The notes under the pieces were generated by a model. It was not told the origin of the DNA. It saw only the letters and a program-made list of their open reading frames with translations, and ran no database searches. The position numbers and the translations under genes are program-made. Source: Candidatus Nomurabacteria bacterium (GTDB taxonomy: Bacteria; Patescibacteriota; Minisyncoccia; Phycocordibacterales; UBA10002). Taken from it: a DNA stretch of 64,000 nt. Location of the stretch: positions 5,401-69,400 of the forward strand of contig CALQZP010000001.1 in the NCBI GenBank assembly GCA_943349725.1, in the 5' to 3' direction. Positions 4,427 to 37,461 of this stretch are shown here, piece after piece; position 1 is the first letter of the stretch, and each line of letters starts with the position of its first letter.

Positions 4427-6080
4427 GACGTAGGTGTCGTTCATAAATGGTGAACACCGCTTCACTGCGGGGATTATAGACATAGTGTGGCGGAAGACCT
4501 TTGGTGAGCTCGGTAAAGGCTGGGTCGGGCACGATGTTTCCTTCCACGAAATAGAAGTCTCGAAATCCTGACCGCTCGTAATAGTCCGCTCCATTTTCAC
4601 GAAGGTACTGCTGATACGTTGCAAAATCTATAATCGGCCAACCGTGATATATCTTTAATCGGTCAAGCCTCCAGAGTTTTGCCCCGTGGTCAAAGTTACC
4701 GTACGTTACGATGAGTGCGGGATACGGAAGATACCCCTTCCGCTCCCCTTTCCTGATAGAGGTATCCTGTTCTCTTTCTATAAACGCGTACTGCATCCTA
4801 AAGGTCGCCGAGGGAATTTTCCTCGCCAGTTCACGGTCGAAATAGTCGCCAAGCTCGTTGTAGCCCCAGTTGTAATTCTCGTAGCGTATCTTGGACGAAA
4901 GCCACGGCTTTTGCCCTACCGGGTAATATGCGATTTGATTATTTATTGAATAGAAAACCTCAAAAAGTAAAACGGGGACGAGTAACCACAAAAAGTATTT
5001 TCTGAGCTGTAGGTGCGTTTGCAAAAACGCCCCGACAGAAAGCGCGAGAAACGGAGTGAGCATCGCAAGAAATCGGAACCCGGGACCAATAACCGCGAGA
5101 AGGAGCAGGAGGTACCCGAGACTAATGAGGAGAAACGGGCTACGCAAAAAGAAAAGCGCGACCCCGGCGAGGGCGAGAAATAGCCACGAATGCGAACCGA
5201 CAAGGCGCGGAAAGAAATCTTGCGCGCGTTCAAGAAGTGAACCGACCTCCTTCCCCGGAGCCACCTGCCACTCCTTCGGGTTTTGCCCGAACACATAGGA
5301 AAACTGAAAATCAAAATGCCCGACGGTTTTATACAGCATCACGTTGTAGATGATAACGGGCGAAAAGATGACGACGGCGAGAGAGAGTGCGAGCCACAAA
5401 TCTTTGCGTCGAAATGCTTCGCGGTGATAGAGAAGCAAAAACGTGCCGAAGATGGGGAACAAAATAAAAGCGTTGTACTTTGTAAGAAGCGCAAGTCCTA
5501 GGGTAATACCGAGCGGTATAAAGGAACGGCCTTCACGCACTGCCCGCAAAAAAAGGTACGAGGCGAGTAGTAAAAAGAAAATAACAAAAGATTCCTGCAT
5601 TCCCACGCGAGAAATATAGATATGATTGAGTGTGACCGAAAGTAGACTGGCTGAAATCAGTCCCGCTGAGGCAGTAAACAGGAGCGAGCCGAGCAAAAAG
5701 ATAAGGTAGACCGAGGCGACTCCAAGGAGCGCGGACGGTAGGCGCATAGCGAAATTATTTTCGCCAAATACCTTGATAGAGAGGTGCTGTACCCAAAAGA
5801 CCAGTGGTGGATGGTCGTGAAATGAGAGGCTTGTCCAGAGAGGAGGCGCGGGGTCAAACCATTCAAGCGGAGTCGTCTGCTTCCCCGCCTCGTCAAAATC
5901 AAGGAGTCCCACGGCACGAAATCCATAGAACACTTCGTCGTTCACCGTATCACCACGTGAAATCCACCCCACACGGAGCAACGCGGAAACAAAAAGAATG
6001 GCGAGAAGTACTTTTTTTACGGTAGTGGCAGACACACTGAAAAAATACCACCGAACTTCGTGGTACACAAGACACCTCAC
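4419..6080 (-). CDS. GT39-family (PMT/ArnT-like) polyprenol-phosphate-sugar dependent glycosyltransferase
   Basis: 553 aa, about 11 TM helices plus a soluble C-terminal domain; architecture and N-terminal loop typical of dolichyl-phosphate-mannose protein mannosyltransferase-like GT-C enzymes. Confidence 0.55.
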   Translation of the reverse strand: MRCLVYHEVRWYFFSVSATTVKKVLLAILFVSALLRVGWISRGDTVNDEVFYGFRAVGLLDFDEAGKQTTPLEWFDPAPPLWTSLSFHDHPPLVFWVQHLSIKVFGENNFAMRLPSALLGVASVYLIFLLGSLLFTASAGLISASLLSVTLNHIYISRVGMQESFVIFFLLLASYLFLRAVREGRSFIPLGITLGLALLTKYNAFILFPIFGTFLLLYHREAFRRKDLWLALSLAVVIFSPVIIYNVMLYKTVGHFDFQFSYVFGQNPKEWQVAPGKEVGSLLERAQDFFPRLVGSHSWLFLALAGVALFFLRSPFLLISLGYLLLLLAVIGPGFRFLAMLTPFLALSVGAFLQTHLQLRKYFLWLLVPVLLFEVFYSINNQIAYYPVGQKPWLSSKIRYENYNWGYNELGDYFDRELARKIPSATFRMQYAFIEREQDTSIRKGERKGYLPYPALIVTYGNFDHGAKLWRLDRLKIYHGWPIIDFATYQQYLRENGADYYERSGFRDFYFVEGNIVPDPAFTELTKGLPPHYVYNPRSEAVFTIYERHLRPI

Positions 6081-6111: not shown

Positions 6112-7611
6112 ATGTTACAGAAACTCTCCGACCAAAAAATTTTCTGGGGAATGATAACGCTCTATGTTGTTGTTTTTGGAACCCTTACGGTTTTGCGCCA
6201 TGACAATTTTCAAACGCAAACGTGGGATATGGGAATCTTTACACAATCCTTTTGGAACGCGTCTCATGGCCGTGGACTCGTGAACACCATAGAACAGGTG
6301 CCAAACCATCTGGGCGTGCACTACAGTCCCTTTCTCTTTTTGCTTGTTCCCGGATATGCACTTTTCCAAGGTTTCTCTGCACAGGCGGGTCCCTACTACC
6401 TCCTTATCATGCAGGCACTCGCGCTCGCGCTCGGAGCCTGGCCTCTTTTCCTCCTCGCAAAAAAGCTCCTCGCTGAACAAAGCATTACTTCTTCATGGTG
6501 GCCTTTCGCGATTACCCTAGCCTACCTCCTCTATCCCCCGCTCCATGCGTTACAGATGTACGATTTTCATGAAGTCGCCTTCTTTGTCCCTCTCTTGCTC
6601 TTCGCCCTCTATTTTCTTGAGACAAAAAAATGGCTCTGGGCGGGATTGTTTTTACTTCTCGCAGGAGCCACCAAAGAAGATGCTATCCTTGTCGTCCTAT
6701 TTGTCGGACTGTTTCTACTGGCCAAGCGAACTTCTCTTCAGAAAAACGGCCTACCGTCAGGAAAGCGCACCAAGAATATAGTCGCGGGGATCATCATTGT
6801 TTCTGCTTTTGTGTATTTTCTTCTTGTTGCCAAAGTGCTCATGCCTGCGGAAGGTGGTGGTTTGTTACGAATTGATAGATACGCGCACCTTGGTGAAACG
6901 GGACTAGAGATAGTGAGTAGCGCGATAACTCATCCACTTCTGCTTCTACAGACGGTGGCTACCCTGCCGAAAATAGAATATTCCTTTTGGCTTCTGCTCC
7001 CGGTCTTGTTTCTCCCGCTTCTGTCGTGGCGAGCTCTCATCCTCCTTATCCCCGGACTCGCTGAAAACCTCCTCACCAATTACACACCTCAATTCAGCAG
7101 TGCGTATCATTATGATGCGCTGCTCATACCAGGACTGTTTCTCGCGACTATCTATGGTGCAAAAATTGCGTTGCTCAGATTTCCGGACAGAGAAAAACAA
7201 CTGCGTCTGCTTTTCCTAACCGCGATGCTTGTAGGCTTTCTGACCAACTCTCCGCTTCGTCCAACAGCTTTTCCGACCGATTATTTCCACACGTCCGAAA
7301 AAAAGGTGGCATATCAGAATCTGGTGCGCCTCGTTCCGCCAGAGGTAAGCGTGTCGGCCGATACCAATCTTGTTCCCCACATGGCGAACCGTGAAAAGAT
7401 ATACTTTGCTGGCTTCGAACCCGAGCTCTCCGATATCGCCTTGCTGAACACCGAGAATATGTTTGGTTTTGAAAACACAGAGACAATCGGAAACTATATT
7501 GAGAGTTATGAAAGATCAGGAGAGTACAACCTCTATGTCTTCGACGACCGGTATGTGGTTCTTCTCAATAAAAAATTGAAAGTGACTGGTTTACCCGCGC
7601 AGGCGCAGTAG
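6112..7611 (+). CDS. DUF2079-family polytopic membrane protein (putative GT-C glycosyltransferase)
   Basis: 499 aa; N-terminal RHDNF-TWDMGIFTQSFW motif and TM-rich layout match DUF2079. Confidence 0.45.
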   Translation: MLQKLSDQKIFWGMITLYVVVFGTLTVLRHDNFQTQTWDMGIFTQSFWNASHGRGLVNTIEQVPNHLGVHYSPFLFLLVPGYALFQGFSAQAGPYYLLIMQALALALGAWPLFLLAKKLLAEQSITSSWWPFAITLAYLLYPPLHALQMYDFHEVAFFVPLLLFALYFLETKKWLWAGLFLLLAGATKEDAILVVLFVGLFLLAKRTSLQKNGLPSGKRTKNIVAGIIIVSAFVYFLLVAKVLMPAEGGGLLRIDRYAHLGETGLEIVSSAITHPLLLLQTVATLPKIEYSFWLLLPVLFLPLLSWRALILLIPGLAENLLTNYTPQFSSAYHYDALLIPGLFLATIYGAKIALLRFPDREKQLRLLFLTAMLVGFLTNSPLRPTAFPTDYFHTSEKKVAYQNLVRLVPPEVSVSADTNLVPHMANREKIYFAGFEPELSDIALLNTENMFGFENTETIGNYIESYERSGEYNLYVFDDRYVVLLNKKLKVTGLPAQAQ

Positions 7612-8634: not shown

Positions 8635-8690
8635 ACTCCTTGAAGTTGCAAAAAGAAAACCGCTCCATTCGCCGAGGCGAATTGGAGCGG

Positions 8691-8791
8691 TAATTTGTTG
8701 TGGTGAACGCCGCATCGTTCACCTGTTAACCCAAAGAACTATCGCGCAAAGCGGTGCGCGAGCCCGTTTTAGAAAACGGGCAAAATGTTAC
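8691..8791. repeat. about 100 nt direct repeat, copy 1 (palindrome gtgaacgccgcatcgttcac plus cccgttttagaaaacggg hairpin)
   Basis: Roughly 96% identical to 9528-9624; overlaps the stop codon of the 8788-9393 gene. Confidence 0.75.
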
Positions 8792-9393
8792 GGGTCGCAC
8801 TCCGCGAGGGAGTTGACCCTGGGAACCTCCGCGGGCGGATCGAGGAGAAGTTCCTCGACCGTCGGGAGTGAATCCTCCCCCCTCCGGAGTAGCCGTGGGC
8901 AGTCCACGACCACGAAGCCTCCGTTTACCAACGCCTCCTTGTTGAGGTGCCGGTTAACCGCGGCGAGCGGCCAAAGGGGGTGGATGGGCGACGGGGAGGG
9001 GTCCCACTCCCCGTGGAGCTCGTCCCAAAGCTCGCGGTACTCCCAGTCTTTCGCAGGGCGCTCGTGCGCCCGGCAGTGCTCGTTCCGCTCAAGCACATTC
9101 GCCCTCTTGGTGAGGGCCATTGCCGTTGGCACCCGGAGGAGCGGTGCCGGAATACACAACCTTTCGTCCCCACTTTCAAGGCGGAGGACAAAGAGGTCGT
9201 AGTGGGCCTGACTGGCGCACTCGCCGGCAGGGTCGTCCGTTTCGAGCTCGACGACGAGCCCCTTCGCCGCCTCTTCACCCCTGAACAGGGCGTCAAGGAG
9301 GAGGCAGAAGACCGTGTTTGGCAGGGTGTAATTTTCCCCTGCCCCGATGTCTTTCGCCCTGTCCGCGAGGGCGAAAAGTTTTTTGATATCCAT
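8788..9393 (-). CDS. hypothetical protein, GC-island paralog family (copy A2)
   Basis: Translation is about 70% identical, with conservative substitutions, to 33938-34564; start at MDIKKLFALADRAK is preceded by a GGAAAGGAAGT RBS. Confidence 0.65.
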   Translation of the reverse strand: MDIKKLFALADRAKDIGAGENYTLPNTVFCLLLDALFRGEEAAKGLVVELETDDPAGECASQAHYDLFVLRLESGDERLCIPAPLLRVPTAMALTKRANVLERNEHCRAHERPAKDWEYRELWDELHGEWDPSPSPIHPLWPLAAVNRHLNKEALVNGGFVVVDCPRLLRRGEDSLPTVEELLLDPPAEVPRVNSLAECDP

Positions 9394-9527
9394 ACTTCCT
9401 TTCCGGCGCAACATCGCGCCAAGAAGTTTTTTTCTCGATAGGCCGACGATTGGTTTCCACACACATGGAAATCCTCGGCCTAATGAAGTCCAGCACCAGA
9501 AAATCCTTCGATTTGTTGGTGCTGGAA

Positions 9528-9624
9528 ATTGTTGTGGTGAACGCCGAATCGCTCACCGTTAACCCAAAGAACTATCGCGCAAAGCGGTGCGCGAGCCCGT
9601 TTTAGAAAACGGGCAAAATGTTAC
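9528..9624. repeat. about 100 nt direct repeat, copy 2
   Basis: Near-identical to 8691-8791. Confidence 0.75.
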
Positions 9625-9657
9625 CCTTTCACCGCCCCGTAGGACGGCGGGAGGTGA

Positions 9658-10119
9658 TCAATACCCGACTGGGTACCACCACCTGGTGTGGCTCGGTCCC
9701 GGCTTCCACCTTGTCCCCGTGTCGGGGTGGGACTCGAATCCCTCCTGGTGGTTGGGGGTGTAAAACCCCTTCTCCACCTCCTCGTCCAAGTAGACGAGGT
9801 CGTTGAGGGTGGCCCGGCGGAGATGGGCCCAGTTATGCCTACACACGGAGCTCCCGCCCCAGTGGGAGACTCGTTGCGAGTCAACCCCCTCCCTGTACAC
9901 CCATGGGAGGGTGAACAGGGAATTCTCCCTGTTGTTTCTGGCCGAAACAACAACCCCCTGCTGATAGTGGGTTCCAAGAACCCACCCCTCCATATCGAGG
10001 GTGGCGTAGAAAACCCCGTCCTGCTGGTGCAGGTGACGGATGGACCCCTCCTTCGAGAAGTCCATAATTTCCGCCAACGAACCCGCCACCGCCACTCCCG
10101 TAATTTCAATTTTTTTCAT
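9658..10119 (-). CDS. hypothetical protein (GC-island gene A1)
   Basis: 153 aa ORF; AAGGAAG RBS before the ATG; about 65% GC; no recognised family. Confidence 0.5.
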   Translation of the reverse strand: MKKIEITGVAVAGSLAEIMDFSKEGSIRHLHQQDGVFYATLDMEGWVLGTHYQQGVVVSARNNRENSLFTLPWVYREGVDSQRVSHWGGSSVCRHNWAHLRRATLNDLVYLDEEVEKGFYTPNHQEGFESHPDTGTRWKPGPSHTRWWYPVGY

Positions 10120-10749
10120 TTTCTTCCTTCTTTTTCTCTTTTTTTTGTTGTTTGTTTCTTTGAACCCTGTTTAAAGTCGATGATTCAACGACTTTTGCCC
10201 AATGCTTACACAACATCGAGCTACCGAAACGACCGATTTCTCGGTCCTACCCAGAGCCTCCAGTTGGGCCAAGGGTGCTCTATCTCGGAATCGCAGTTAA
10301 TGAAATGCGACCCCTCTTGCTCTGCCGACACAGGTCGGCAAGGCGAAGAGGAGTAACATTTCGGAACGAATGACCGCTCCGCGTCTTCCTGTTTGAGGTT
10401 TTATCTTCACCTCAAACTTTCTTCTGCCTATTCGGTTGTCAAAGAATCAAACATACAGTATACCATGTACCATATATAAAGTCAATAGGTGGGGAGGGCT
10501 GAAAAAGCTATGATTAGAGCCATGAAAAACTCCGCCTTTATTGATGCGCAAACTGAAAAAGGAAGTCAGAGAGAAGATAACAGGACTTATGTACACCCCT
10601 CCCGCGCTAGACGCGTGTGTGCTCCCCTTGTTAGGGGAGAATTAAGACAAAGTTGCGTAAGTCCTAGATAAATTATATGAATAATCTTAATCATAAAATC
10701 GGCAGAGGTTGGAAACGAAAACGCACCGCGCAGACACGAGGACTGCGAG

Positions 10750-14954: not shown

Positions 14955-15104
14955 TTAATTGCGAGAAACTTCTCGACGAAACCGCACGTTATCGTTCGCG
15001 TTCTGCACGTCGTTGTAATTCACGTTCACCGTACCATTGCTGCGATTGAAGTTCACATACGGCACGTTCTCGTCGGGAAGGCGGTTCGTCCTGTCTTTCT
15101 CCAT
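14955..15104 (-). CDS. 49 aa orphan ORF homologous to the C-terminal tail of the 15418-16269 protein
   Basis: MEKDRTNRLPDENVPYVNFNRSNGTVNVNYNDVQNANDNVRFRREVSRN aligns to ...RLPDERVPCVHFNRGLGGVNVYCYDV...VRFRRAV of the upstream gene; the underlying roughly 110 nt DNA repeats are about 80% identical. Confidence 0.35.
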   Translation of the reverse strand: MEKDRTNRLPDENVPYVNFNRSNGTVNVNYNDVQNANDNVRFRREVSRN

Positions 15105-15417: not shown

Positions 15418-16269
15418 CTATTGCGGAAGTGAAGAAGTTTGAAGGTTTGAAGGAACAACTGCTCGACGAAACCGCACGTCCGCGAGCGCGAGCAGCACGT
15501 CATAGCAATACACGTTCACCCCACCAAGGCCGCGATTGAAGTGCACACACGGCACGCGCTCGTCGGGAAGGCGGGAGTCAGTACAGAAGGTTATAACGCC
15601 TTGGTCCGGATGAACGCTGTACTGTCTCCCATATGCTCGTCCAAAGAGTTGGCGCATAGGAACCGTAGTAGTTGTCCACGGGAGTTCGCGAACGGCAACC
15701 GTATGAAGATTGATCGGACTGTTCGTGCCCTTTCCAAGACATCCATCCGGAGCCTCCTGCTCATCCGCGACCCAAAAGCCAAAGGTACCGGTGTGTTTGT
15801 GCGTCATCTCCACATCGTCAAGGCTTTTATCACCGGAAAATCTCGAGACCTTGCCACCATAGGCTTTTTTATCGGACTGGAAGAAAAACTCCGCCGACTG
15901 CGCCACCTTTTCGTGCATTAGGCAGAAACGGGCTTTGTAGCCGAGGGGTTGGCGTGGGATAAGGAGTCCGGCGAAATCGGTTTTCATGCCGTATTCGTCG
16001 CTCCAGAACTTTTCTTCCCGCTGTGCGAGTTCGCTCGGAATGGTAATAAGCGACGAATCCGTCTTCGTCGATTCTTTGAGCGCAATGCGCTGGTCGCAAC
16101 CGAGATGCGCGACCGTCCGCACCAACTCTGACACCTGCGGATGATTTTCGTTCTTGAGCAAATAATACACTTCAGCATCCGACAGAACGCCGACACTATT
16201 CGCAAATCTGCCCGCGAGGGTCAATCTTTGCTGTACTTCTTCTGTCACCAACAAGGGGGCCTTAGTCAT
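15418..16269 (-). CDS. hypothetical protein (283 aa)
   Basis: Long ORF with an RBS-like purine run upstream; no family recognised. Confidence 0.5.
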   Translation of the reverse strand: MTKAPLLVTEEVQQRLTLAGRFANSVGVLSDAEVYYLLKNENHPQVSELVRTVAHLGCDQRIALKESTKTDSSLITIPSELAQREEKFWSDEYGMKTDFAGLLIPRQPLGYKARFCLMHEKVAQSAEFFFQSDKKAYGGKVSRFSGDKSLDDVEMTHKHTGTFGFWVADEQEAPDGCLGKGTNSPINLHTVAVRELPWTTTTVPMRQLFGRAYGRQYSVHPDQGVITFCTDSRLPDERVPCVHFNRGLGGVNVYCYDVLLALADVRFRRAVVPSNLQTSSLPQ

Positions 16270-28489: not shown

Positions 28490-28693
28490 TTACTTAAAAT
28501 CTTCATCTCGAAGATTCGCTTGCCGAAGGATTGATTTGAATGTGCCGATAGGCACCTCCTTTCTGTTTGCAGGAACAATCACCACATACCCGTCTTTTTC
28601 GAATTTAGCATGACTGCCTTTTTGAGAAATAAAAGTAAAACCGCATCGCAAGAGAACGCACTCAATATGACGTGAGGAGTAAAATTTAGGCAT
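28490..28693 (-). CDS. HicA-family mRNA interferase toxin
   Basis: 67 aa; RCGFTFISQKGSHAKF...IGTFKSILRQANL matches the HicA/YcfA fold. Confidence 0.7.
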   Translation of the reverse strand: MPKFYSSRHIECVLLRCGFTFISQKGSHAKFEKDGYVVIVPANRKEVPIGTFKSILRQANLRDEDFK

Positions 28694-28904
28694 ACCGCAA
28701 AGAAGTTGACACCAACTCCGGTCGAAGCACCTCGGTCACTTTTGGTTTCCGGGAGGATTCGAAGTAAAGTTCAAGAGCCTCGGCTAGATTTTTAAGAGCC
28801 AATTTTTTGCTTTCTCCAAAACTGGAAACATCCACGTTGAGGCATTGAGCTACGTAGTATTTCCCCTCTTTCCAAACTATATTTTTAAGATTTAAAGTTT
28901 TCAT
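28686..28904 (-). CDS. HicB-like antitoxin (N-terminal RNase H-like domain only)
   Basis: MKTLNLKNIVWKEGKYYVAQCLNVDVSSFGESKKLALKNLAEALELYF is the HicB_like motif; 8 nt overlap with hicA. Confidence 0.6.
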   Translation of the reverse strand: MKTLNLKNIVWKEGKYYVAQCLNVDVSSFGESKKLALKNLAEALELYFESSRKPKVTEVLRPELVSTSLRYA

Positions 28905-28915
28905 AACACTAGAAG

Positions 28916-29131
28916 TTATATCACATCCTTTAAGGAGCGCCCTCTTTTGAATCTTCCCTGCGCAAAATCCCTTTGGCTTCTCATGACAGACTGGTATAAC
29001 TGCTCTTCTTCCCAAGCTCTCACCGCGTCCCTGAAAAACTCGCTAACGGAAGCGTAATTGCCTTCTTTAACCGCTATGTCCACATTGCGCTTGAGTGAAA
29101 CCGGCATTGAAATGTTTAGTGTTGTTCTCAT
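28916..29131 (-). CDS. ribbon-helix-helix (CopG/ParD-like) DNA-binding protein
   Basis: 72 aa from the internal Met; MRTTLNISMPVSLKRNVDIAV is a beta-strand then helix-helix RHH pattern. Confidence 0.5.
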   Translation of the reverse strand: MRTTLNISMPVSLKRNVDIAVKEGNYASVSEFFRDAVRAWEEEQLYQSVMRSQRDFAQGRFKRGRSLKDVI

Positions 29132-29185
29132 ACAAGAAGTGTAGCAAATTGTGCTACAGGCCGTCAAACAGCATCTTCCTAACAC

Positions 29186-29226
29186 AAAACCGCCCCGATG
29201 TAACATCGGGGCGGTTTTGTTTTTCG
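29186..29226. terminator. bidirectional Rho-independent terminator
   Basis: Stem ccgccccgatg / catcggggcgg with an A-run upstream and ttttgttttt downstream. Confidence 0.7.
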
Positions 29227-29266
29227 TGTGCGAAGAGAGAGATTTAAAACACACGACCACTCTGCA

Positions 29267-29373
29267 CTTGCCCTTCCGTAGCTTTATGCGTAGGAGGGTT
29301 TTCCGGGCTTGTGACCGACACCTCTATTTTGCTTATTCGCGCTTGCCCGTCCGTAGTTTTATACGTAGGAGGG
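29267..29373. repeat. two direct repeats of about 32 nt (cttgccc-tccgtag-tttat-cgtaggaggg) spaced 75 nt apart
   Basis: Seen directly at 29267-29298 and 29342-29373, at the boundary of GC-rich island B. Confidence 0.55.
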
Positions 29374-29493: not shown

Positions 29494-29700
29494 TCAGTCT
29501 CGGGAGAACTTCGCGAACAGGATAGCCACAAAGGCCAGCCCAAGCTCCGCCCACATAAGGAGCATCGCTTGGTTCCAGTACGCTCGGAACCCTTCCGAGA
29601 ACGGGGTCGGCTCCTGCCAGAGAATCACTGCTTTCATGGCCATTAAGCCAAGAGAGACAGCGACAATCGCGCGAGCCAACCCAAGGAACAACTTTCTCAT
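29494..29700 (-). CDS. small hypothetical membrane protein (island B)
   Basis: 68 aa, two TM helices, strong GGAGGTG RBS. Confidence 0.45.
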   Translation of the reverse strand: MRKLFLGLARAIVAVSLGLMAMKAVILWQEPTPFSEGFRAYWNQAMLLMWAELGLAFVAILFAKFSRD

Positions 29701-29895
29701 TTTTTCACCTCCTTCCGAGAATTTGAGGATTTAAACCCAATGAACCCGCGACAATCTTTCAGTCTGCGAGCTCAATAAAGTGGAGAATTTTATAACCCAC
29801 GCGAGATTCTTCCGAAACTCGCAACCTTGTCGAGCACCAATATCTTTTGGTGCTCGACCTGCGGACTATTAAGGGAGGTCCGCACTCCGTGTTTG

Positions 29896-30231
29896 TTATT
29901 TTTCCACCCAAGCTTTTGCGGCTTCGAGAGCCGCTTCGGCATCGGCGAAAAAACTCTGGTCGTTTTCGTTGCGCCAGAGTTTGAGAGACGACGTGGCACC
30001 TTGGAGCGCCACAATCATCTCGTTTTCACTGACCCGCTCTCTGGTCCAGTGAGCGGGGGCAGGGTGGGGCAGTCTTTCGAACAGTCCATCTCCGCCCTTA
30101 ACCCCCGTGATCTGGAATATCCGCTCTCCCACGGACCATTCCAGTGCTTTCCGTTCTCCCTCCACCCAGACACGGAGGAAGGCGAGGTCGTGTTTTGTCA
30201 TACACGACCTCAATTGGCCCAACTCCATTGC
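29896..30231 (-). CDS. hypothetical protein (island B)
   Basis: 111 aa from MELGQL; overlaps the upstream gene by about 20 nt (operon-like). Confidence 0.4.
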   Translation of the reverse strand, partial: AMELGQLRSCMTKHDLAFLRVWVEGERKALEWSVGERIFQITGVKGGDGLFERLPHPAPAHWTRERVSENEMIVALQGATSSLKLWRNENDQSFFADAEAALEAAKAWVEK

Positions 30232-30446
30232 CCGACCGGAACCTCCATCTCCACGAGGAGACGTCCGGCCTGGCATCGGATGACAAGAGTTGCCTCGTCA
30301 TCCTTGAGCCAAATTTCTTCGTCCGGAATTTGCTCCGGACGAATCCCAAGTTGCCCAGTCGCCTGAGCAACTTTTCCGGCCATCGCCTGCCACGCGGCGA
30401 TGGCATCCGTGGTTAGAACCACGGACCCCATGTTTATTTTTTTCAC
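30210..30446 (-). CDS. hypothetical protein (island B)
   Basis: 78 aa, GTG start with AAAGGAGG RBS 5 nt upstream. Confidence 0.45.
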   Translation of the reverse strand: MKKINMGSVVLTTDAIAAWQAMAGKVAQATGQLGIRPEQIPDEEIWLKDDEATLVIRCQAGRLLVEMEVPVGQWSWAN

Positions 30447-30522
30447 GGGGTCCTCCTTTCACTTAAATTTTCTTCCTACTCTCCCACAAAACCATTGTCT
30501 TGCGAGAGTGATAAGAAGGTGA

Positions 30523-30543
30523 ACGCCGTATCGTTCACCAAAA
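30523..30543. repeat. palindrome gtgaacgccgtatcgttcac, third copy
   Basis: Same palindrome as in the 8691 and 9528 repeats. Confidence 0.6.
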
Positions 30544-30600
30544 CCCTAAACCTTTTCTTTTTGAATGTTGCACCGAATACGGTCGGCGTTTTATTCTTTA

Positions 30601-31275
30601 CTAGGAATTACAAAATTCCTGGTAGGCCGTTTTTGCCTCCGATTCAAACATGGTGATGGAGCCGAGACACCCATCGTAGGTGCCGCAGATTTCTACCCAT
30701 GCCGGAATCGGCAGTGACACTACCTTCTCCGGTGTTTCAATCTCCCGCACCTGCGGAAACTGCGCCGCTTTTAGGCGGAACATTTCCTTCATCTGCTGAG
30801 CCGAAACCCAAAAAATACTGGGTCTGAAGCTTACACTGACCCGACTTGATCCGACTATCGGCTCAATGAGGATATCGAACCTGATAGAATCCGGCCACAC
30901 TAGGGTCTCTGGGTTTTTATAGCCCGGACCGGACGCGCGGCCATAGAACCCCACGGACGCCAGCTCCTCGGGAGTGAGGGGAACTGCACTTCTCGCCGAG
31001 AGCTCCCTTCGCAAGGCGGCTTCCCACTCTTCGTACTTTCTGCCACTCCCTCCGTCAGGAACCGGCCCATTAATCTCAACGAGCAACTTGCTCGCTGAGT
31101 CGTCCAGCCCCGAAGCGACTGCTTCTTCGGCTAGATGGGTGCATTCGCGCCCCATGTGATACGCGGCAAAGAGCGCCGCGTGAATTGTTGATTTAATCCC
31201 ACTTTTCTTGGCAGCAGGTGAGCCGGTTTTGTTTGTGTTGTTCATAGCAACCTGCTTCCGATAATTCGGAAACAT
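30601..31275 (-). CDS. hypothetical protein (island B)
   Basis: 224 aa ORF; the likely true start is MNNTNK at 31245, which has a GGAAGCAGG RBS. Confidence 0.45.
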   Translation of the reverse strand: MFPNYRKQVAMNNTNKTGSPAAKKSGIKSTIHAALFAAYHMGRECTHLAEEAVASGLDDSASKLLVEINGPVPDGGSGRKYEEWEAALRRELSARSAVPLTPEELASVGFYGRASGPGYKNPETLVWPDSIRFDILIEPIVGSSRVSVSFRPSIFWVSAQQMKEMFRLKAAQFPQVREIETPEKVVSLPIPAWVEICGTYDGCLGSITMFESEAKTAYQEFCNS

Positions 31276-31496
31276 ATTGCTATGAACAACGACTCTATGA
31301 GCCGACCAACACTATTGCCCGGCTCAATAAAGTCCAGCACAACCGACCAAGGAAGTGCTGGGTAAATGTTGGAGAATTAACCCATTCTTTCTGAACAATT
31401 CTCCTTTTGTTCATAAAGTCACAAGAGCCCGCAATACCGCTCTTGCATAACTTCTACCAATCACGCATTGCGACGCGTGTCCGATTTTAGTCGGGA

Positions 31497-32474
31497 TTAT
31501 TTGAGATGGCGGGCCACCACCTCGACCACCTGCTCGACCGTCAGGGTCGAACTGACTCCTTGCGGAGAACCCCCAATAGTCGGCGACCCGCCCCAGCCGG
31601 GTTCAAGCCCCGCCAACTCGGCGAGTGCTGCTTTGATGTCCGCGAACCTGGCCGCCTCAAACGCGCACACCGTAAACTTACGGTGTGGTTCGCCCACACC
31701 GAGCTTGAAACTCGGATTGAGGGCGACCACCACAGGGGCCAGGGAGTACCCGACCATCGTGGCGGCACGATGAGTGGACTCCACGACAGCAATTTTGTCG
31801 TCTGCCGTGGTCAAGTGTTTGATGGCACCCGACTCCAGCGCGCCGACCATCTCGTCGCGCTCCTTCTCCACCTGCTCGCGGTAGCGAGCAGGTTCCTCGC
31901 CGGTCAGAAGCCACTTTTCCATCGTGGCGACCCGCTCGGCGAACGGGACCTTGAAGTCCGCCACCGCCGCGTTGATTGCGGCGAGCGGACGAGAGCTTTC
32001 GGCCGAGGCGCTCTCCTCCGGCCACGGATTGTCCGCGGTCGGAAGCGGTCGAGGCCCGGGATAACCACCCCAAGCAAATTTATCGGCCTTGGCGACCTTT
32101 TTCACCTGCTCCTGGCAAAAAAAAGTTGGCATATCACAACACCCACCACTGCTCTCCAACAGATGGTGACGAATCCCAATGACTGACATTGCCCCGACGG
32201 AGTCCAGATCGGGTCGCACGGTGGCCAGCGTTGTCCATTCCGCCGGCATTTCAATGCCGATCACGACCTCGATGGCCGACCTTCCAGCGTTTCCGCCGGT
32301 GTGTTGGGGGTCAATGTTCCCCAGTGAGCACCGTGCCGCCAATGCGGGCACGGTGACCTCGATCCCGAGAACCGGCCCCGATGCAAAGATCGCGTCGTTG
32401 GCCGCTTGAGCGGATGGGAGGTTTCGGGGATCCAGCACCGCGAATTTATAATTCTTCATAACAATTTCACTCAT
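31497..32474 (-). CDS. hypothetical protein, 325 aa (island B)
   Basis: Long GC-rich ORF with conserved-looking Gly-rich segments; no family recognised. Confidence 0.45.
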   Translation of the reverse strand: MSEIVMKNYKFAVLDPRNLPSAQAANDAIFASGPVLGIEVTVPALAARCSLGNIDPQHTGGNAGRSAIEVVIGIEMPAEWTTLATVRPDLDSVGAMSVIGIRHHLLESSGGCCDMPTFFCQEQVKKVAKADKFAWGGYPGPRPLPTADNPWPEESASAESSRPLAAINAAVADFKVPFAERVATMEKWLLTGEEPARYREQVEKERDEMVGALESGAIKHLTTADDKIAVVESTHRAATMVGYSLAPVVVALNPSFKLGVGEPHRKFTVCAFEAARFADIKAALAELAGLEPGWGGSPTIGGSPQGVSSTLTVEQVVEVVARHLK

Positions 32475-32849
32475 CTCAAAATAAAAACAAAGCTGTATCA
32501 GTTTTTTCGATACGGTCTTTGTCTTTCATACTGCGCGGGTTTCTATGTCGCGCAAATATGTCATCTCGAATTTTTCGACAAGTGAGCGGGGGTCTAGACT
32601 GTCCCCATTCACTGGTCGAAGTAAGTGAAATTACTATGAATACCTGTCTACAGACCGGCAAAATTTGTCGGCCTGATAAACAGGAGAAGTTTTTAACCGA
32701 AAACTTCTCCACATAACCCTTGCGATTATTTTTCTCGGGAAATCGTCCTTCCCAACGCACTGCATGCGAGGCTCACGCTTTAAAAAGGTGACAACAATTA
32801 GTGCTTCTGTAGCGAAAGTTGCACTATCTTTCGGATGTCTTTCCATCAG

Positions 32850-33185
32850 TCAGTCGAAAGGCTCGAGTCTTCTCAAGACTTCCAACATCCCCTTTACCGG
32901 TTCGGGGAGGACTTGGTTCTTCACCTCAAACCCAGGTCTCGGACTCTTAACAAGTCCGTTCTGGATTTTTATGAAAGTGACATTGTCCACTTCCATAGTC
33001 CTCTCCCCGCTCTGTAGGATTATAACCACTTCATTTCCATGAAGTATCTTATAATCCCCAGAGACGGTGTTTTGGATCAGTAGTCCAAAACCTCCGGCCA
33101 GCCTAAGCTGACTAGGGGTGAAAACTTTTCCTCCCTCCCGGCATGGGATGAGAGTAAAGTTTTCTTTAGATAAGAAAAATACCAT
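32850..33185 (-). CDS. hypothetical protein (island B)
   Basis: 111 aa ORF, beta-rich composition. Confidence 0.35.
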   Translation of the reverse strand: MVFFLSKENFTLIPCREGGKVFTPSQLRLAGGFGLLIQNTVSGDYKILHGNEVVIILQSGERTMEVDNVTFIKIQNGLVKSPRPGFEVKNQVLPEPVKGMLEVLRRLEPFD

Positions 33186-33326
33186 TTATGGTATCCTCCT
33201 CCCGTTTTTTTCACTGAAACGGCAAGCTTTCGACCTAACTTTCAAGCCTCGCCAAACAGCTCACACTTTGTAACAGGCAGTGAGCGCCTTTGTCCTTCCT
33301 ATTCCCACGGTGCGGGAATAGGAACA

Positions 33327-33740
33327 TTACGAGATGAGGACCCCCTCAATCTCGCTCCTGGCCACCGCAAAAGCGTCGGCGTCACAAACCCCGGTCTCCT
33401 CCGGGATTTGCCGTAGGAATTCCTCGTACCTCGAAAAATTCTTTTGGTCGAGACTTTTTGCCTCGACCAACCACAACACGCCTACGCGTGTGTGGATTTT
33501 AACCGCGGCCATAAGGCCGCGGCCGCTCATCGACTTCCACCTGAGCATTCTCAGGTTTCGTTCGGTGAACTGCATCCATGAAAAACCAGTTGAACGGTTT
33601 TCATGGTTTTCGGGCTCCGAACGCCCATTCCACAGCCTATCGGCTCCTTGGTGTTCGGTCCCAACAAGAACTTTGTCGGTGGGGGCATCGGCCCCCAGTT
33701 GATTGCACGCCATGCGACTCAAATCGCATAGCGACGCCAT
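33327..33740 (-). CDS. hypothetical protein (island B)
   Basis: 137 aa from MASLCDL; carries the same conserved 5' leader as 8788-9393 and 33938-34564. Confidence 0.45.
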   Translation of the reverse strand: MASLCDLSRMACNQLGADAPTDKVLVGTEHQGADRLWNGRSEPENHENRSTGFSWMQFTERNLRMLRWKSMSGRGLMAAVKIHTRVGVLWLVEAKSLDQKNFSRYEEFLRQIPEETGVCDADAFAVARSEIEGVLIS

Positions 33741-33937
33741 TTTATAATTTTCACACTTCCTTTCTGGCGTTACACGCGCCAAAAGTTTTCTTGATGGGCC
33801 AACGACTTTTCCGCACACACGGAGAATTGCAAGCCCAATAAAGGGGAGGAACGAAAACCCTTTCGTTCCTCCTTTGAAACCTTAACCTTTTCGCACCTTT
33901 AAAAGTGCGAGCGCGTTTTAGAAAACGCGCAAAATGT

Positions 33938-34564
33938 TTACACTCTCACCGCTTCTGGGTGGAGTGCCCAGTACTCGGCCGTACTGGAAAGTCCCAGCTC
34001 CGCCGGAGGCGGGTTGACGAGAAGCTCCTCGACCGTCGGGAGCAGCTGCCCCTTCCCCTTTAGTGACCGCGGGATCTCCGCGACCACAAACCCTCCCCGA
34101 ACCAGCGCCTCTTTGTTGAGGTGCCGATTGACCGCAGCGAGCGGCCAATAGGGGTGGATTGGGGAGGGAGAAGGCTCCCACTCCCCGTGGAGCTCATCCC
34201 AGAGCTCCGATAGCTCCCACTCCCCAGGAGCCTCGTGCTCCCGAGAGTGTTCCACTCGGCCGACTCGATTGGCCCGCTTCGTCATCGCCATGGCCGTCTC
34301 CACCCGGAGGAGCGGTGCCGGTATGCATAGCTTTTCGTTTCCGCCCGGCAAGCGGAGAACGAAGAGGTCGTAGTACGCCTGGTCGGCGAAATGACCCTCG
34401 TCGTCCTCAGTTTCGAGGTCGACGACGAGTCCCTGCGCCTCCTCGTTGCCCCTGAAAAGGGCTTCGAGAAGAACGCAGAAAACTGCGTTGGGGAGGGAAT
34501 AATCTTCCCCTCCCCCAATTGTCTTCGCCCTGTCTGCAAGGGCGAAAAGTTTTTTAATGTCCAT
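33938..34564 (-). CDS. hypothetical protein, GC-island paralog family (copy B2)
   Basis: Paralog of 8788-9393 (DIKKLFALADRAK...LCIPAPLLRV...ELWDELHGEW...PLAAVNRHLNKEALV). Confidence 0.65.
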   Translation of the reverse strand: MDIKKLFALADRAKTIGGGEDYSLPNAVFCVLLEALFRGNEEAQGLVVDLETEDDEGHFADQAYYDLFVLRLPGGNEKLCIPAPLLRVETAMAMTKRANRVGRVEHSREHEAPGEWELSELWDELHGEWEPSPSPIHPYWPLAAVNRHLNKEALVRGGFVVAEIPRSLKGKGQLLPTVEELLVNPPPAELGLSSTAEYWALHPEAVRV

Positions 34565-34745
34565 ACTTCCTTTCCGGCGCGACACTGCGCCAAACAGCTT
34601 TCTCTATAGGCCGACGATTGATTCCGCACACACGGAGAATTGCAAGCCCAATAAAGGGGAGAAGTTTTTAACCAAAAACTTCTCCCATAACCCCATGCAA
34701 CAATTTATCCATCTAATGGAAAGGAAGTTGCTCTTCCTTTGCGCT

Positions 34746-35552
34746 TCAGCTTTCCACCGAAGCGGCGACCTCTTCCCGCGTAGCGGGAGGAGTGTAGTTT
34801 TTCTTGGCGGCCTCAATGGCCGCCAAGATTGCATCCACACCTACCGGATTTCTAAATCCGGTGTAGGTGAGGAGCAACCTCGCCTGAATGGCGGGGGAGG
34901 TTCTGACCTCCCGCCCACCAACTGAGGAGAGAACCTCCTCCATGCTGTCCTCTGACAGCCCCTCGGCTGTCAGCTGTTCCCGAGTGACCGTGAGGTCCTC
35001 GGGAAGATTTTCTACCGCCTCCTTGTGGCGGCAGGGAGGGCACTTGCCCTCCAACTTGATGACAGGAAGCGCGTGCGCGCTCCCTTCCGTCCCTTCGTCC
35101 TCCCCCACCCGGAGAAGGACGAACTCCGACAGCGTGGACCCGCAGTAGGTGCGGGTCCAGCAAAAGCCTGCCTTAGGAGTAGGCAGGCTTTGGGGTTCCC
35201 AGTAGCCGTTTAGGACGGCTACTGGATTTAGAATCGCGTGGCCACCCACGCGACCCGACCAGTTCCAGAGTTGGAACTCGATCGGGTTCACCGGCCGCCC
35301 TTCGGCGGTGGTAAACCCCGTCGCCACCGACCCAACCCCACCCATGGTGAGGAAGAGAGTGGCGATTTCACACGCCGTGGCCAAGGCCTCGGCGTTTTCG
35401 ACTTTCTCCACCCGGAACTTCCGGGTGGATTTCCCGCAACAGGAGCATGTGCGCTCCATGATGCGGGCGTTTACGACGTCCCCGTCTGCGGGGACGTCAC
35501 CGGTCCAGAGTTTGCCGGGGGAACCGATCCCCCGGCGAATTTTAACAATCAT
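34746..35552 (-). CDS. hypothetical protein with Cys clusters (CSCCGKS, CPPCRH), island B
   Basis: 268 aa ORF; possible zinc-binding motifs. Confidence 0.4.
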   Translation of the reverse strand: MIVKIRRGIGSPGKLWTGDVPADGDVVNARIMERTCSCCGKSTRKFRVEKVENAEALATACEIATLFLTMGGVGSVATGFTTAEGRPVNPIEFQLWNWSGRVGGHAILNPVAVLNGYWEPQSLPTPKAGFCWTRTYCGSTLSEFVLLRVGEDEGTEGSAHALPVIKLEGKCPPCRHKEAVENLPEDLTVTREQLTAEGLSEDSMEEVLSSVGGREVRTSPAIQARLLLTYTGFRNPVGVDAILAAIEAAKKNYTPPATREEVAASVES

Positions 35553-36136
35553 TTTTCCTTTCCGGTGTATCTCTACACCTTTTTTGTTTTTTTATTTCTT
35601 CGAACCCATTCGGATCCAAAAAAACGGAATCGTCTTTGCGATCCCTCTTACCCCACCAACCTTAAGTCTTTCGATCTATCAATAAGTGGGGCGAAGAGGA
35701 ATAACATTGCGGAACGATTTGTTCCACGTTTTCCTAATTCGCTATTCTGTTTTCAAAGTTCATCCTTACTCTCTCCTTTCACTTCCGCGCAACTCTCTCT
35801 TCCTTGCCCGAACAAGTCTTCTTGTTTTAGGGTAATTCAGATTGCGTGGCTTCCTGGTGTAAGGACATTTTGGAATACAAAGCGGGTTAGACCTTATATT
35901 CCATCGATGTCCTTGCGAGCCTTCTCGCGAACAACGTGCGGTGAGTTTGCCTGTAGGCATAGCTCCTTTATTTGGGTAGGTTTCGAAGCCACACAAATAT
36001 AGAGCACTCACCATTCGAAACGAGACTTTCATAAGCTTGCTTCTCTCCCCACTCTCTCTTCTTTCTACGCTTAGTCCCTTGCGGGAAGGTCGTAGTACCC
36101 TCGAGCACTAACTTGTGCGTGCGCTATAATTGCAAT

Positions 36137-36391
36137 ATGTATTATGTATACTTTTTGCAAAGTGGTGTTGGTAAAACCTATATCGGCTATACCAACGACC
36201 TGAAGCGCAGACTCGCACAACATAACTCCTCGCAAAGTACCTACACTCGAAATCAAAAGTGGCGACTTGTGTACTACGAAGCTTACGCTTCTAAAGCTGA
36301 TGCCGTGTGTCGAGAAAAATGTCTCAAGCAACGCGGTCAAGCTGTACGCCAACTTAAAGATCGTGTATCTGAATCTTTACGCACAAGTTAG
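36137..36391 (+). CDS. GIY-YIG nuclease family protein
   Basis: MYYVYFLQSGVGKTYIGYTNDLKRRLAQHN is a canonical GIY-YIG (URI) motif. Confidence 0.75.
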   Translation: MYYVYFLQSGVGKTYIGYTNDLKRRLAQHNSSQSTYTRNQKWRLVYYEAYASKADAVCREKCLKQRGQAVRQLKDRVSESLRTS

Positions 36392-36648: not shown

Positions 36649-37461
36649 ATGGAAAATATACAATATGAAAAGTTTTTAGGGGAGCTTGGACTCAACAAAG
36701 AGCAGTCACTCGTCTACGAATCGCTCTTAAAAAACGGGCTTATGCCCGCTAGAGTTGTAGCCCAAAAATCAGGGGTCAAGCGAAGTCTTGCTTATAAAAT
36801 ATTAGAGCAGCTTATTTCGCTTGGTTTGGTGGAAAAAAGAGACAATATCGGGAAAATTACCCTGTTCTTCCCTGCCCACCCGGGCAAGCTTCGAGAATTC
36901 CTGCAAAAGCGCGAGGAAGCCATAAAAACCGCCGAGGCTTCGCTCGGCGGGATTATGGGGAAAATGGTGTCGGACTTTAATTTGCTTTCAGGAAAACCCA
37001 ACGTGCAATTCTACGAAGGGCCGGAGGGGATGAAAAAGGTGTTGGAAGATTCTCTTTCGGCGGAAAGTGAAATCTATTCATATTCTGATGTTATTTCGGT
37101 ACAACAATATATCCCCACTCTTAACACCGAATACATGGCCAAGCGGACCAAATTTAATGTAAAGAAAAAAATACTTTTTTTTGATTCTAAAGAAGCACGC
37201 GCTCTTCTTCCTAAAATATACAAACCGGATATCACGGAATATAAATTCATTCCGTTCAAAACGGAACCGCCTCATACTGTCATGCAAATGTATGACAAAA
37301 AAGTATCGTACATCACCCTTGCCAAAGAACAAATGATCGGCGTCATCATTGAGGACGCGAATATTTATTCACTTCATAAATATCTCTTTGAACACCAGTG
37401 GAGTACTAGTCCCGAACTCCCAATAGGAGCGGTTTCTGCGGTCGAGAAAACTCTTCAATAG
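36649..37461 (+). CDS. TrmB-family transcriptional regulator
   Basis: 270 aa; N-terminal winged HTH (LNKEQSLVYESLLKNG...ILEQLISLGLV) and TrmB-like C-terminal domain. Confidence 0.6.
   Translation: MENIQYEKFLGELGLNKEQSLVYESLLKNGLMPARVVAQKSGVKRSLAYKILEQLISLGLVEKRDNIGKITLFFPAHPGKLREFLQKREEAIKTAEASLGGIMGKMVSDFNLLSGKPNVQFYEGPEGMKKVLEDSLSAESEIYSYSDVISVQQYIPTLNTEYMAKRTKFNVKKKILFFDSKEARALLPKIYKPDITEYKFIPFKTEPPHTVMQMYDKKVSYITLAKEQMIGVIIEDANIYSLHKYLFEHQWSTSPELPIGAVSAVEKTLQ

Follow-up and report, generated by a model that had tools for sequence, protein, structure and literature searches.

A structured RNA at the head of cassette-like gene islands in a Candidatus Nomurabacteria genome and its relatives

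Processive antitermination elements such as HK022 putL and putR and the Bacillus EAR element (the epsC motif in Rfam) are promoter-proximal, cis-acting folded RNAs of which one copy heads each long operon. The put elements consist of two stacked hairpins, EAR is a pseudoknotted element. In the JUMPstart/ops system with RfaH and in the lambda nut system with N, a short conserved leader is common to variable, compositionally foreign operons. Here, an RNA element is described that is found twice in a 64,000-nucleotide stretch of DNA (the window) from Candidatus Nomurabacteria bacterium (GenBank assembly GCA_943349725.1, contig CALQZP010000001.1, positions 5,401 to 69,400 of the forward strand). 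All coordinates below are those of the window unless a relative is named. Both copies, A and B, lie upstream of the minus-strand genes of a GC-rich island and are read on the minus strand, i.e., the gene strand.

The element resembles put and EAR in being a folded, promoter-proximal cis element that heads a multi-gene operon with one copy for each, and an action independent of the cargo would match as well. It differs in its architecture, which is a four-way junction, and it is much longer in its long form. In the whole window Rfam 15 reported two tRNAs only at gathering thresholds, and for the two leader regions no Rfam family, EAR included, exceeded chance level at E ≤ 10 with permissive filters. 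To our knowledge Rfam holds no put model, so that this negative covers EAR and not put. With the RfaH- and N-dependent systems the element shares the conserved leader before variable foreign operons, and a conserved hairpin repeated along the island transcript could be a protein-loading site as lambda boxB is. In contrast to these systems, no NusG paralogue or N-like protein was identified here, and while ops works as a non-template DNA element, the element described here is an RNA structure as judged by covariation. We class it as a new structured-RNA family, probably of the leader type, without a matching family in Rfam 15, and its association with cassette-like arrays is unusual. Supported by covariation, the family is present in dozens of Patescibacteria, whose genomes are tiny and for which few regulatory RNAs are known, and it always stands before variable, compositionally foreign operons.

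Structure and covariation of the RNA

The covariance model of the element, R1, was built from 24 aligned relatives (alignment A3) and comprises 144 positions with 35 pairs, and covariation statistics were computed on an alignment of 29 sequences. Paired cells amount to 90.8%, compared to 40-52% if the 3' partners are slid by 1-3 columns. Changes on both sides are found for 18 of the 35 pairs, distributed over all helices (7/7 pairs in P1, 7/20 in P2, two in P3 and two in the closing helix), and 0 of 500 shuffles reached any of the observed covariation measures. Three pairs, at alignment pairs 192-256, 200-249 and 207-242, are invariantly U-G or G-U. As these would be A-C mismatches on the opposite strand, it is the transcript of the gene strand that folds in this way, and we regard a structured RNA on the minus strand as almost certain.

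The model R1 recovers exactly two copies in the 64 kb of the window. The 3' domain of copy B (35626..35756, minus strand) scores 126.5 bits (E = 1.3e-22) with a fold z-score of -5.2 against shuffled controls, and that of copy A (10287..10442, minus strand) 84.6 bits (E = 3.3e-14) with a fold z-score of -7.1. Further copies at random intergenic sites, which a first-pass annotation made from the sequence alone had named as evidence against a link to the islands, are thereby absent from the window.

Throughout the family the domain spans 130-190 nucleotides (nt). It starts with a 5' motif, UUGAMAA-N3-AAUAGCGAAG, which is followed by an optional hairpin and by a short closing helix, GGAA/UUCC, enclosing the three hairpins P1, P2 and P3. 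The junction strands AAACG and CAAUGUUAU are invariant. In copy B the 5' motif reads UUGAAAACAGAAUAGCGAA and the closing helix Pc surrounds P1, P2 and P3 to form the four-way junction. Hairpin P1 of copy B is located at 35709..35727 on the minus strand (GUGGAAC/GUUCCGC; 10363-10380 in copy A), and in the family its loop or insert varies from 5 to ~30 nt. The long arm P2 (35642..35701 in copy B, minus strand) has 20 pairs that are 93% paired and it is built from an invariant base, UCCUCUU/AAGAGGG, a CG/U internal loop, a covarying inner helix, a likewise covarying distal helix and a conserved apical loop, which is GAUAG..GAAAGACUUAA in copy B and GAUAGCGUAAAAAACUUAA in the family. P3 has the consensus RUYGYA..UGCGAU. 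Together with the closing UUCC it occupies 35626..35641 of the minus strand in copy B, where it looks like a terminator because U7 follows; the equivalent in copy A (10287-10310) is without a U tract. A U tract after P3 is found in only three of 30 loci (copy B, L006 and L023). Copy A keeps the 5' motif, Pc, P1, the junction, the basal part of P2 and P3, the conserved apical loop of P2 is replaced by a plain GC hairpin, and the optional hairpin is inserted at 10391-10417. A reading of the element as a leader peptide or as a Shine-Dalgarno (SD)-AUG signal was rejected, as neither the AUG triplets after AAGAGGG nor the small open reading frames (ORFs) at AAGGAUG are conserved between loci.

The two copies had come to attention through a shared segment of 32 nt, which the first-pass annotation described as nearly identical upstream of the first gene of both islands. 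A 28-nt degenerate pattern, GGCGAAGAGGARTAACATTKCGGAACGA, indeed matches the plus strand at 10342-10369 and 35690-35717 with 0 mismatches. No third site is found in the window even if up to three mismatches are allowed, and 0.00 sites are expected from 100 dinucleotide shuffles. The annotated coordinates need correction, since the segment of copy A was given as 10349-10380, 7 nt too high for a string that lies at 10342-10372, and that of copy B was 1 nt off. The hairpin reported to precede each copy and to end in GGCGAAGAGG is present and is the complement of P2, and with 223 and 138 nt to the start codons of the first minus-strand genes (10119 and 35552) the reported spacing is confirmed. Homology between the copies extends well beyond the 32 nt, over ~130-155 nt, and their minus-strand alignment reads ACGYGGARC..UCGUUCCGMAAUGUUAYUCCUCUUCGCC[variable hairpin]AAGAGGGRUCGCA[..]GAUUCC. 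On the minus strand the segment of copy B (35690..35717) is the complement of the P1 3' strand (35709-35715), of the junction AAUGUUA (35702-35708) and of the P2 5' basal strand (UUCCUCUUCGCC), and the segment of copy A (10342..10369) is that of the P1 3' strand (10363-10369), of the junction (10354-10362) and of the P2 5' basal strand. The shared segment thus is the core of a strongly folded RNA at the transcribed head of the islands and not an insertion scar. Of the proposal that the two islands have a common end or a common regulator, the common element at the head of each stands and points to common control; the interpretation as an att-like island boundary does not.

Distribution, promoters and organisation of the islands

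The islands encode two paralogues of 215 amino acids (aa; island B) and 224 aa (island A), for which five relatives were found among 5.8 billion proteins, and on the contigs of these five relatives similar gene clusters are preceded by the same non-coding sequence. Scanning one genome per species with the exact pattern gave 12 places, 11 of which are genuine: ten are in metagenome-assembled genomes of Patescibacteria (Paceibacteria, Nomurabacteria, Taylorbacteria and 'Saccharibacteria') and one is on a duplicate contig binned as Bacteroidota, while the twelfth is a chance match inside a spirochaete gene. The same scan of metagenomes added 26 places, 21 of them genuine. Chance matches were dropped (L012, L020, L030, L032, L034 and L035). 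With R1 each genuine locus yields one copy, corresponding to ~30 loci in Patescibacteria, and copies were also recovered from two further loci that were reached independently via a cargo protein. No tRNA or tmRNA was predicted by ARAGORN at either copy in the window or at the copies in 12 loci. Comparison by blastn with 50,697 phage and 72,556 plasmid records gave no match to the element, and the pattern scan of viral contigs returned chance matches in coding DNA only and no model matches. In the full-text literature no description of such an RNA in Patescibacteria or Parcubacteria was found.

The element occurs in a short and a long form. In short-form loci, copy A among them, a promoter close to the consensus lies 15-60 nt upstream of the domain. 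For copy A and island A this is a sigma-70-like promoter at 10457..10485 of the minus strand (TTGACT-17-TATACT with TG before the -10 box), ~15 nt upstream of the RNA, and equivalent consensus promoters are present in L006, L008, L010, L013, L015, L018, L039 and L046. The long form has ~380-450 nt more of conserved non-coding sequence upstream, giving a total of ~520-600 nt, and in the relatives it possesses a consensus promoter of its own. It is found for copy B and in L001, L004, L011, L022, L024-L026, L036 and L041, and a variant form exists in others. For nine long-form 5' domains RNAalifold predicted 60 pairs, of which 35 show compensatory changes. In the window this 5' domain extends over 35757..36135 (minus strand) of copy B and is absent from copy A. 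The conserved 5' domain starts ~400-450 nt upstream of the shared segment in copy B, its 5' end is shorter than in relatives, and no good promoter was detected for this copy. The shortened end adjoins a gene for a GIY-YIG nuclease (36113-36391, plus strand), which occupies the site of a 23S_rRNA_IVP-family gene in the relatives. An 88-aa ORF over the 5' domain was dismissed as a gene, being not conserved and interrupted by a stop codon in L001. Divergently transcribed beside the long-form RNA and island B is a gene for a TrmB-family regulator (36649-37461, plus strand), and likewise in L001, L004, L007, L011, L014, L044 and L048; island A has no TrmB neighbour.

The RNA always precedes co-oriented ORFs whose GC content exceeds that of the flanks, e.g., in L007 with 0.31 upstream and 0.51 downstream. 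The first ORF starts 3-300 nt downstream of the RNA (median ~90 nt), and no terminator-like hairpin lies within 150 nt downstream of it in 24 of the 30 loci. Clustering of the downstream ORFs yielded mosaic families, F0-F12, none of which is universal, and the first gene varies between loci; a signature protein always linked to the RNA was thereby excluded. In the window, island A carries two genes (8788..10119, minus strand) encoding proteins of 153 aa (9658-10119) and 224 aa (8788-9462). Island B (29495..35552, minus strand) consists of about ten co-oriented genes, among them those of the 215-aa paralogue and of a 325-aa protein with a DHH-like fold. The GC content at third codon positions (GC3) is 0.70-0.77 for most island genes (0.76-0.77 in island A) and 0.51-0.61 for three genes of island B, as compared to 0.38-0.58 for host genes. 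No strong promoters were found inside the islands.

How the cargo behaves relative to the RNA is seen in the relatives L013 and L037, which are collinear and in both of which tsaD, the RNA, a small-ORF segment and tRNA-Val follow each other. L037 has an extra 3.5 kb (a helicase gene and one more gene) at a single insertion point that lies ~290 nt downstream of the RNA and 28 nt from tRNA-Val, with the left break inside a conserved spacer hairpin module. In this comparison with an island-free relative, which the first-pass annotation had suggested for defining the insertion points, the junction is therefore away from the element and not at it. L013 keeps the RNA with almost no cargo, i.e., a 22-aa ORF only. 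The RNA is intact in both relatives, and it is therefore resident while cargo comes and goes behind it. At the distal ends of both window islands no copy or fragment of the leader was found, and the longest word in common has 9-12 nt. The full gene of tRNA-Val at the far end of the cargo region is accompanied by partial duplicates of its 3' part (..CAGCTAACCGCGCATA..), which lie at 6254-6364 and 6418-6482 of L037 and at ~4200-4290 of L013.

A second conserved module is found in spacers on the gene strand. It consists of the hairpin GGUGAACGAUGCGGCGUUCACC followed by ACYUUUUUGAGYU-hairpin-AGCUCAUAGRG, is present in the islands of at least eight genomes and shows compensatory covariation for 14 of its 24 predicted pairs. 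The intercistronic hairpin is located at 8702..8723 (minus strand) with further copies at 9536-9557 and 30518-30539, and the module sites in the window are 8682-8791, 9516-9624 and 30480-30560 (minus strand). In the relatives it is found at L001 8974, L009 2906, L011 823, L015 4164, L016 6992, L023 5455 and L037 5409 and 6149. Island A contains the entire ~110-nt module twice, once after each gene, and 67 nt of it are 100% identical. Further, a 40-nt stretch upstream of two adjacent unrelated genes of island B is 100% identical at 33809-33848 and 34622-34661. Unrelated genes are flanked by modules with full identity over 40-67 nt, and both islands share a 25-nt stretch (9431-9455, 33787-33811 and 34599-34623). 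The 40-nt and 25-nt stretches look like 5' untranslated region (UTR) modules that are reused between cassettes. Several island B genes are followed by strong hairpins of 11-13 bp and then CYUUUAUUGG (34657-34686, 33845-33872 and 32683-32710, minus strand), and a similar hairpin follows the 22-aa ORF of L013 at ~4450-4490. This combination may be a cassette-end signal. An ANTAR-type reading of the spacer hairpin was discarded: ANTAR hairpins follow an A..G.. hexaloop rule, which the loop (A/U)U(G/U/A)C(G/A)G does not fit.

Possible roles of the leader

The element probably acts in cis on its own transcript, as a leader. This is favoured because no terminator follows the RNA in most loci, the first ORFs are near and each island has its own copy. 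Our preferred reading, offered tentatively, is that the RNA is the minus-strand 5' leader of each island operon and controls transcript elongation or the expression of the cassette array. Elongation control as such is a more doubtful step, suggested by the position of the element, its independence of the cargo and the hairpin-rich spacers. According to such a mechanism, the folded nascent leader would let the transcription complex read through the hairpins between the cassettes, as in processive antitermination by HK022 put, B. subtilis EAR or lambda nut. Perhaps a protein would recognise the leader together with the invariant intercistronic hairpin GGUGAACG-AUGCGG-CGUUCACC. Any cassette placed behind the leader could then be expressed.

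Several observations weigh against this reading. Strong hairpins with partial U tracts stand after most island B genes, but terminator-like sites are only modestly enriched in this island, with 18 compared to 9.4 +/- 3.4 expected (both strands counted). The mRNA strand of the islands is G-rich and not C-rich, and Rho-dependent polarity would therefore be no obvious problem to solve. Known antitermination RNAs are far smaller than the long form of the leader with its 500-600 nt. The retention of the RNA in L013 with nearly no cargo would agree as well with an RNA that has an independent function, and a Woesebacteria locus has TrmB and DHH-like genes in the absence of the RNA, so that cargo can be expressed without it. 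Should the element indeed serve processivity or expression, this would account for the expression of acquired genes in such reduced cells, and the element would constitute a portable expression leader.

An unlikely, though the best surviving, alternative is a regulated leader, a riboswitch or protein-binding switch, in which the four-way junction binds a small molecule or a regulator and toggles between pairings to turn the array on or off. Like SAM-I-type riboswitch aptamers, the element is located in the 5' UTR, has three arms enclosed by a closing helix and keeps its junction nucleotides invariant. Invariant nucleotides in junction and loop of a multi-helix junction are typical of aptamers, as is a conserved 5'-UTR structure with covariation. 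Moreover, the junction AAUGUUAU has two further possible partners: the AAUAGCG of the 5' motif, with which at least 26 of 29 sequences could form 7 consecutive pairs, and the P3 5' strand, for which one or two compensatory events were seen. As these strands hardly vary, the alternative pairings are beyond confirmation by covariation. P3 doubles as a terminator-like hairpin in copy B, L006 and L023, and some of the cargo acts on nucleotides (DHH-like fold, NDK and HD_4). However, unlike SAM-I-type aptamers the element has no consistent function downstream, with a first gene that differs from locus to locus, no conserved expression platform, given that the P3 terminator is restricted to three of 30 loci and no conserved SD sequestration is seen, and no Rfam match.

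Only slightly less of a case can be made for a free-standing functional RNA, which might be large and ornate or belong to a ribonucleoprotein and whose strongly expressed locus would merely be a preferred landing place of foreign cassettes, with the cargo as passenger; this, too, we consider unlikely. OLE, GOLLD, ROOL and raiA are comparable to the long form of ~520-600 nt in that it is densely paired with covariation throughout and restricted to one lineage. The sequence of the element is better conserved than most cargo proteins, across genomes with an upstream flanking GC content of 0.31-0.48, and its persistence in L013 with almost no cargo fits an RNA that serves itself. In contrast to the ornate RNAs, whose Rfam models do not match, it always precedes co-oriented genes, usually without a terminator in between, and it exists in a short form of 130 nt. 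Both copies in one genome head an island, and copy A, although it is without the 5' domain and the P2 apex, is still positioned before an operon. If the element were such a free-standing ornate RNA, or else part of a cassette platform, it would be a new class on a very short list.

It is improbable that the locus is an integron-like cassette platform, with the head and the intergenic hairpin modules serving as recombination sites or guides for the capture and shuffling of cassettes. Integrons, with Pc/attI and attC cassettes, likewise have one promoter-bearing head, co-oriented cassettes of foreign composition, structured repeats between these and a content that varies among relatives. In the window islands co-oriented genes, mostly without recognisable promoters, are placed behind one upstream promoter and most of them are set apart from the host by their GC3. 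Identical modules of 40-67 nt accompany unrelated genes, the same hairpin module recurs in the spacers of many genomes, and the clean 3.5-kb cargo indel has its left break in such a module. But neither IntI nor any other integrase or recombinase was found in or near any locus: eight island proteins gave no match to Pfam, NCBIfam, PHROG functions or PADLOC, and the gene tables of the related loci contain no recombinase families. The modules appear to have no consistent attC core: attC sites carry RYYYAAC and GTTRRRY cores at the cassette ends, and a GTTRRRY-like core precedes only ~4 of 11 hairpin modules as judged by reading (no dedicated attC model was used). The conserved head is a transcribed RNA structure, the G-U pairs point to selection on RNA and not on folded DNA, and ordinary homologous recombination between the repeated modules explains the indels. 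Somewhat better placed, yet still rather unlikely, is the broader notion that the RNA and the intercistronic modules together form a Patescibacteria-specific platform that expresses foreign GC-rich cassettes and possibly aids their acquisition or shuffling without a recognisable integrase, i.e., an integron-like logic based on RNA.

That the shared segment is the att-like end of a site-specific insertion or a DNA operator for a shared repressor, as had been proposed at first, is very improbable, as its equivalent position in both islands and the divergent TrmB-family gene beside island B and in many relatives are outweighed by the lack of a second copy at the distal ends and of an integrase, the indel junction that lies elsewhere in the relatives, the compensatory changes and the strand-specific G-U pairs of the paired structure to which the segment belongs, the absence of a TrmB neighbour from island A, and its distance of hundreds of nt downstream of the promoter in long-form loci, apparently including copy B.

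Cargo proteins, terminators and small repeats

The islands are genuinely coding. The 215-aa and 224-aa paralogues are 71% identical and differ at 45, 36 and 87 sites of codon positions 1, 2 and 3, respectively, and this excess at third positions rules out that the islands are non-coding. Cargo with recognisable domains comprises AAA and MoxR ATPases, a DEAH helicase, an HD_4 protein, a radical-SAM activase-like protein, NDK and CsrA. The csrA gene is part of the cargo of one locus, and GGA-rich stretches are present, which prompted the idea of a CsrA sponge. Assignment of the islands to a known defence system was rejected as PADLOC gave no match, and the 126-aa protein of island B (29896-30276) has no match in Pfam. 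More than 1000 homologues from across Patescibacteria are 60-70% identical to the 325-aa protein (31497-32474, minus strand), which belongs to no Pfam family. The AlphaFold model of this protein has a predicted local distance difference test (pLDDT) value of 89.5, and the best Foldseek matches, which are moderate (E ~2e-4, TM-score 0.3-0.35), are to RecJ2, PAP phosphatase and NanoRNase A, all of them with the DHH/DHHA1 fold. The analysis thereby flags a DHH-fold protein family of more than 1000 members without a Pfam model, and R1 provides a practical marker for accessory-gene hot spots in genomes of Patescibacteria.

Island A is closed by an intrinsic terminator read from the sequence at 8650..8690 of the minus strand, CCGCUCC..GGAGCGG followed by UUUUCUUUUU. 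The likely terminator of island B is a 17-bp hairpin at 29184..29220 with U/A tracts on both sides. Just past it, two small overlapping genes (28686-29260, minus strand) encode an RHH (CopG-type) protein and a DUF7387 protein, which may represent a toxin-antitoxin-like pair.

The two 32-nt direct repeats that the first-pass annotation placed at the opposite boundary of island B, 29267-29298 and 29342-29373, are real and 29/32 identical. They differ from the leader segment and constitute a separate small repeat on the plus strand with the core CCGTAGYTTTATRCGWAGG, which is found in either orientation and only in the window and its closest relative. In the latter, one repeat of this type (L001 4688-4712) is inserted into the leader RNA, separating P1 from the junction, and is oriented opposite to the genes. 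Elsewhere in the window, a direct repeat of 118 nt (14967-15084 and 15457-15574) is 81% identical between its copies, which are 490 nt apart, and is unrelated to the islands.
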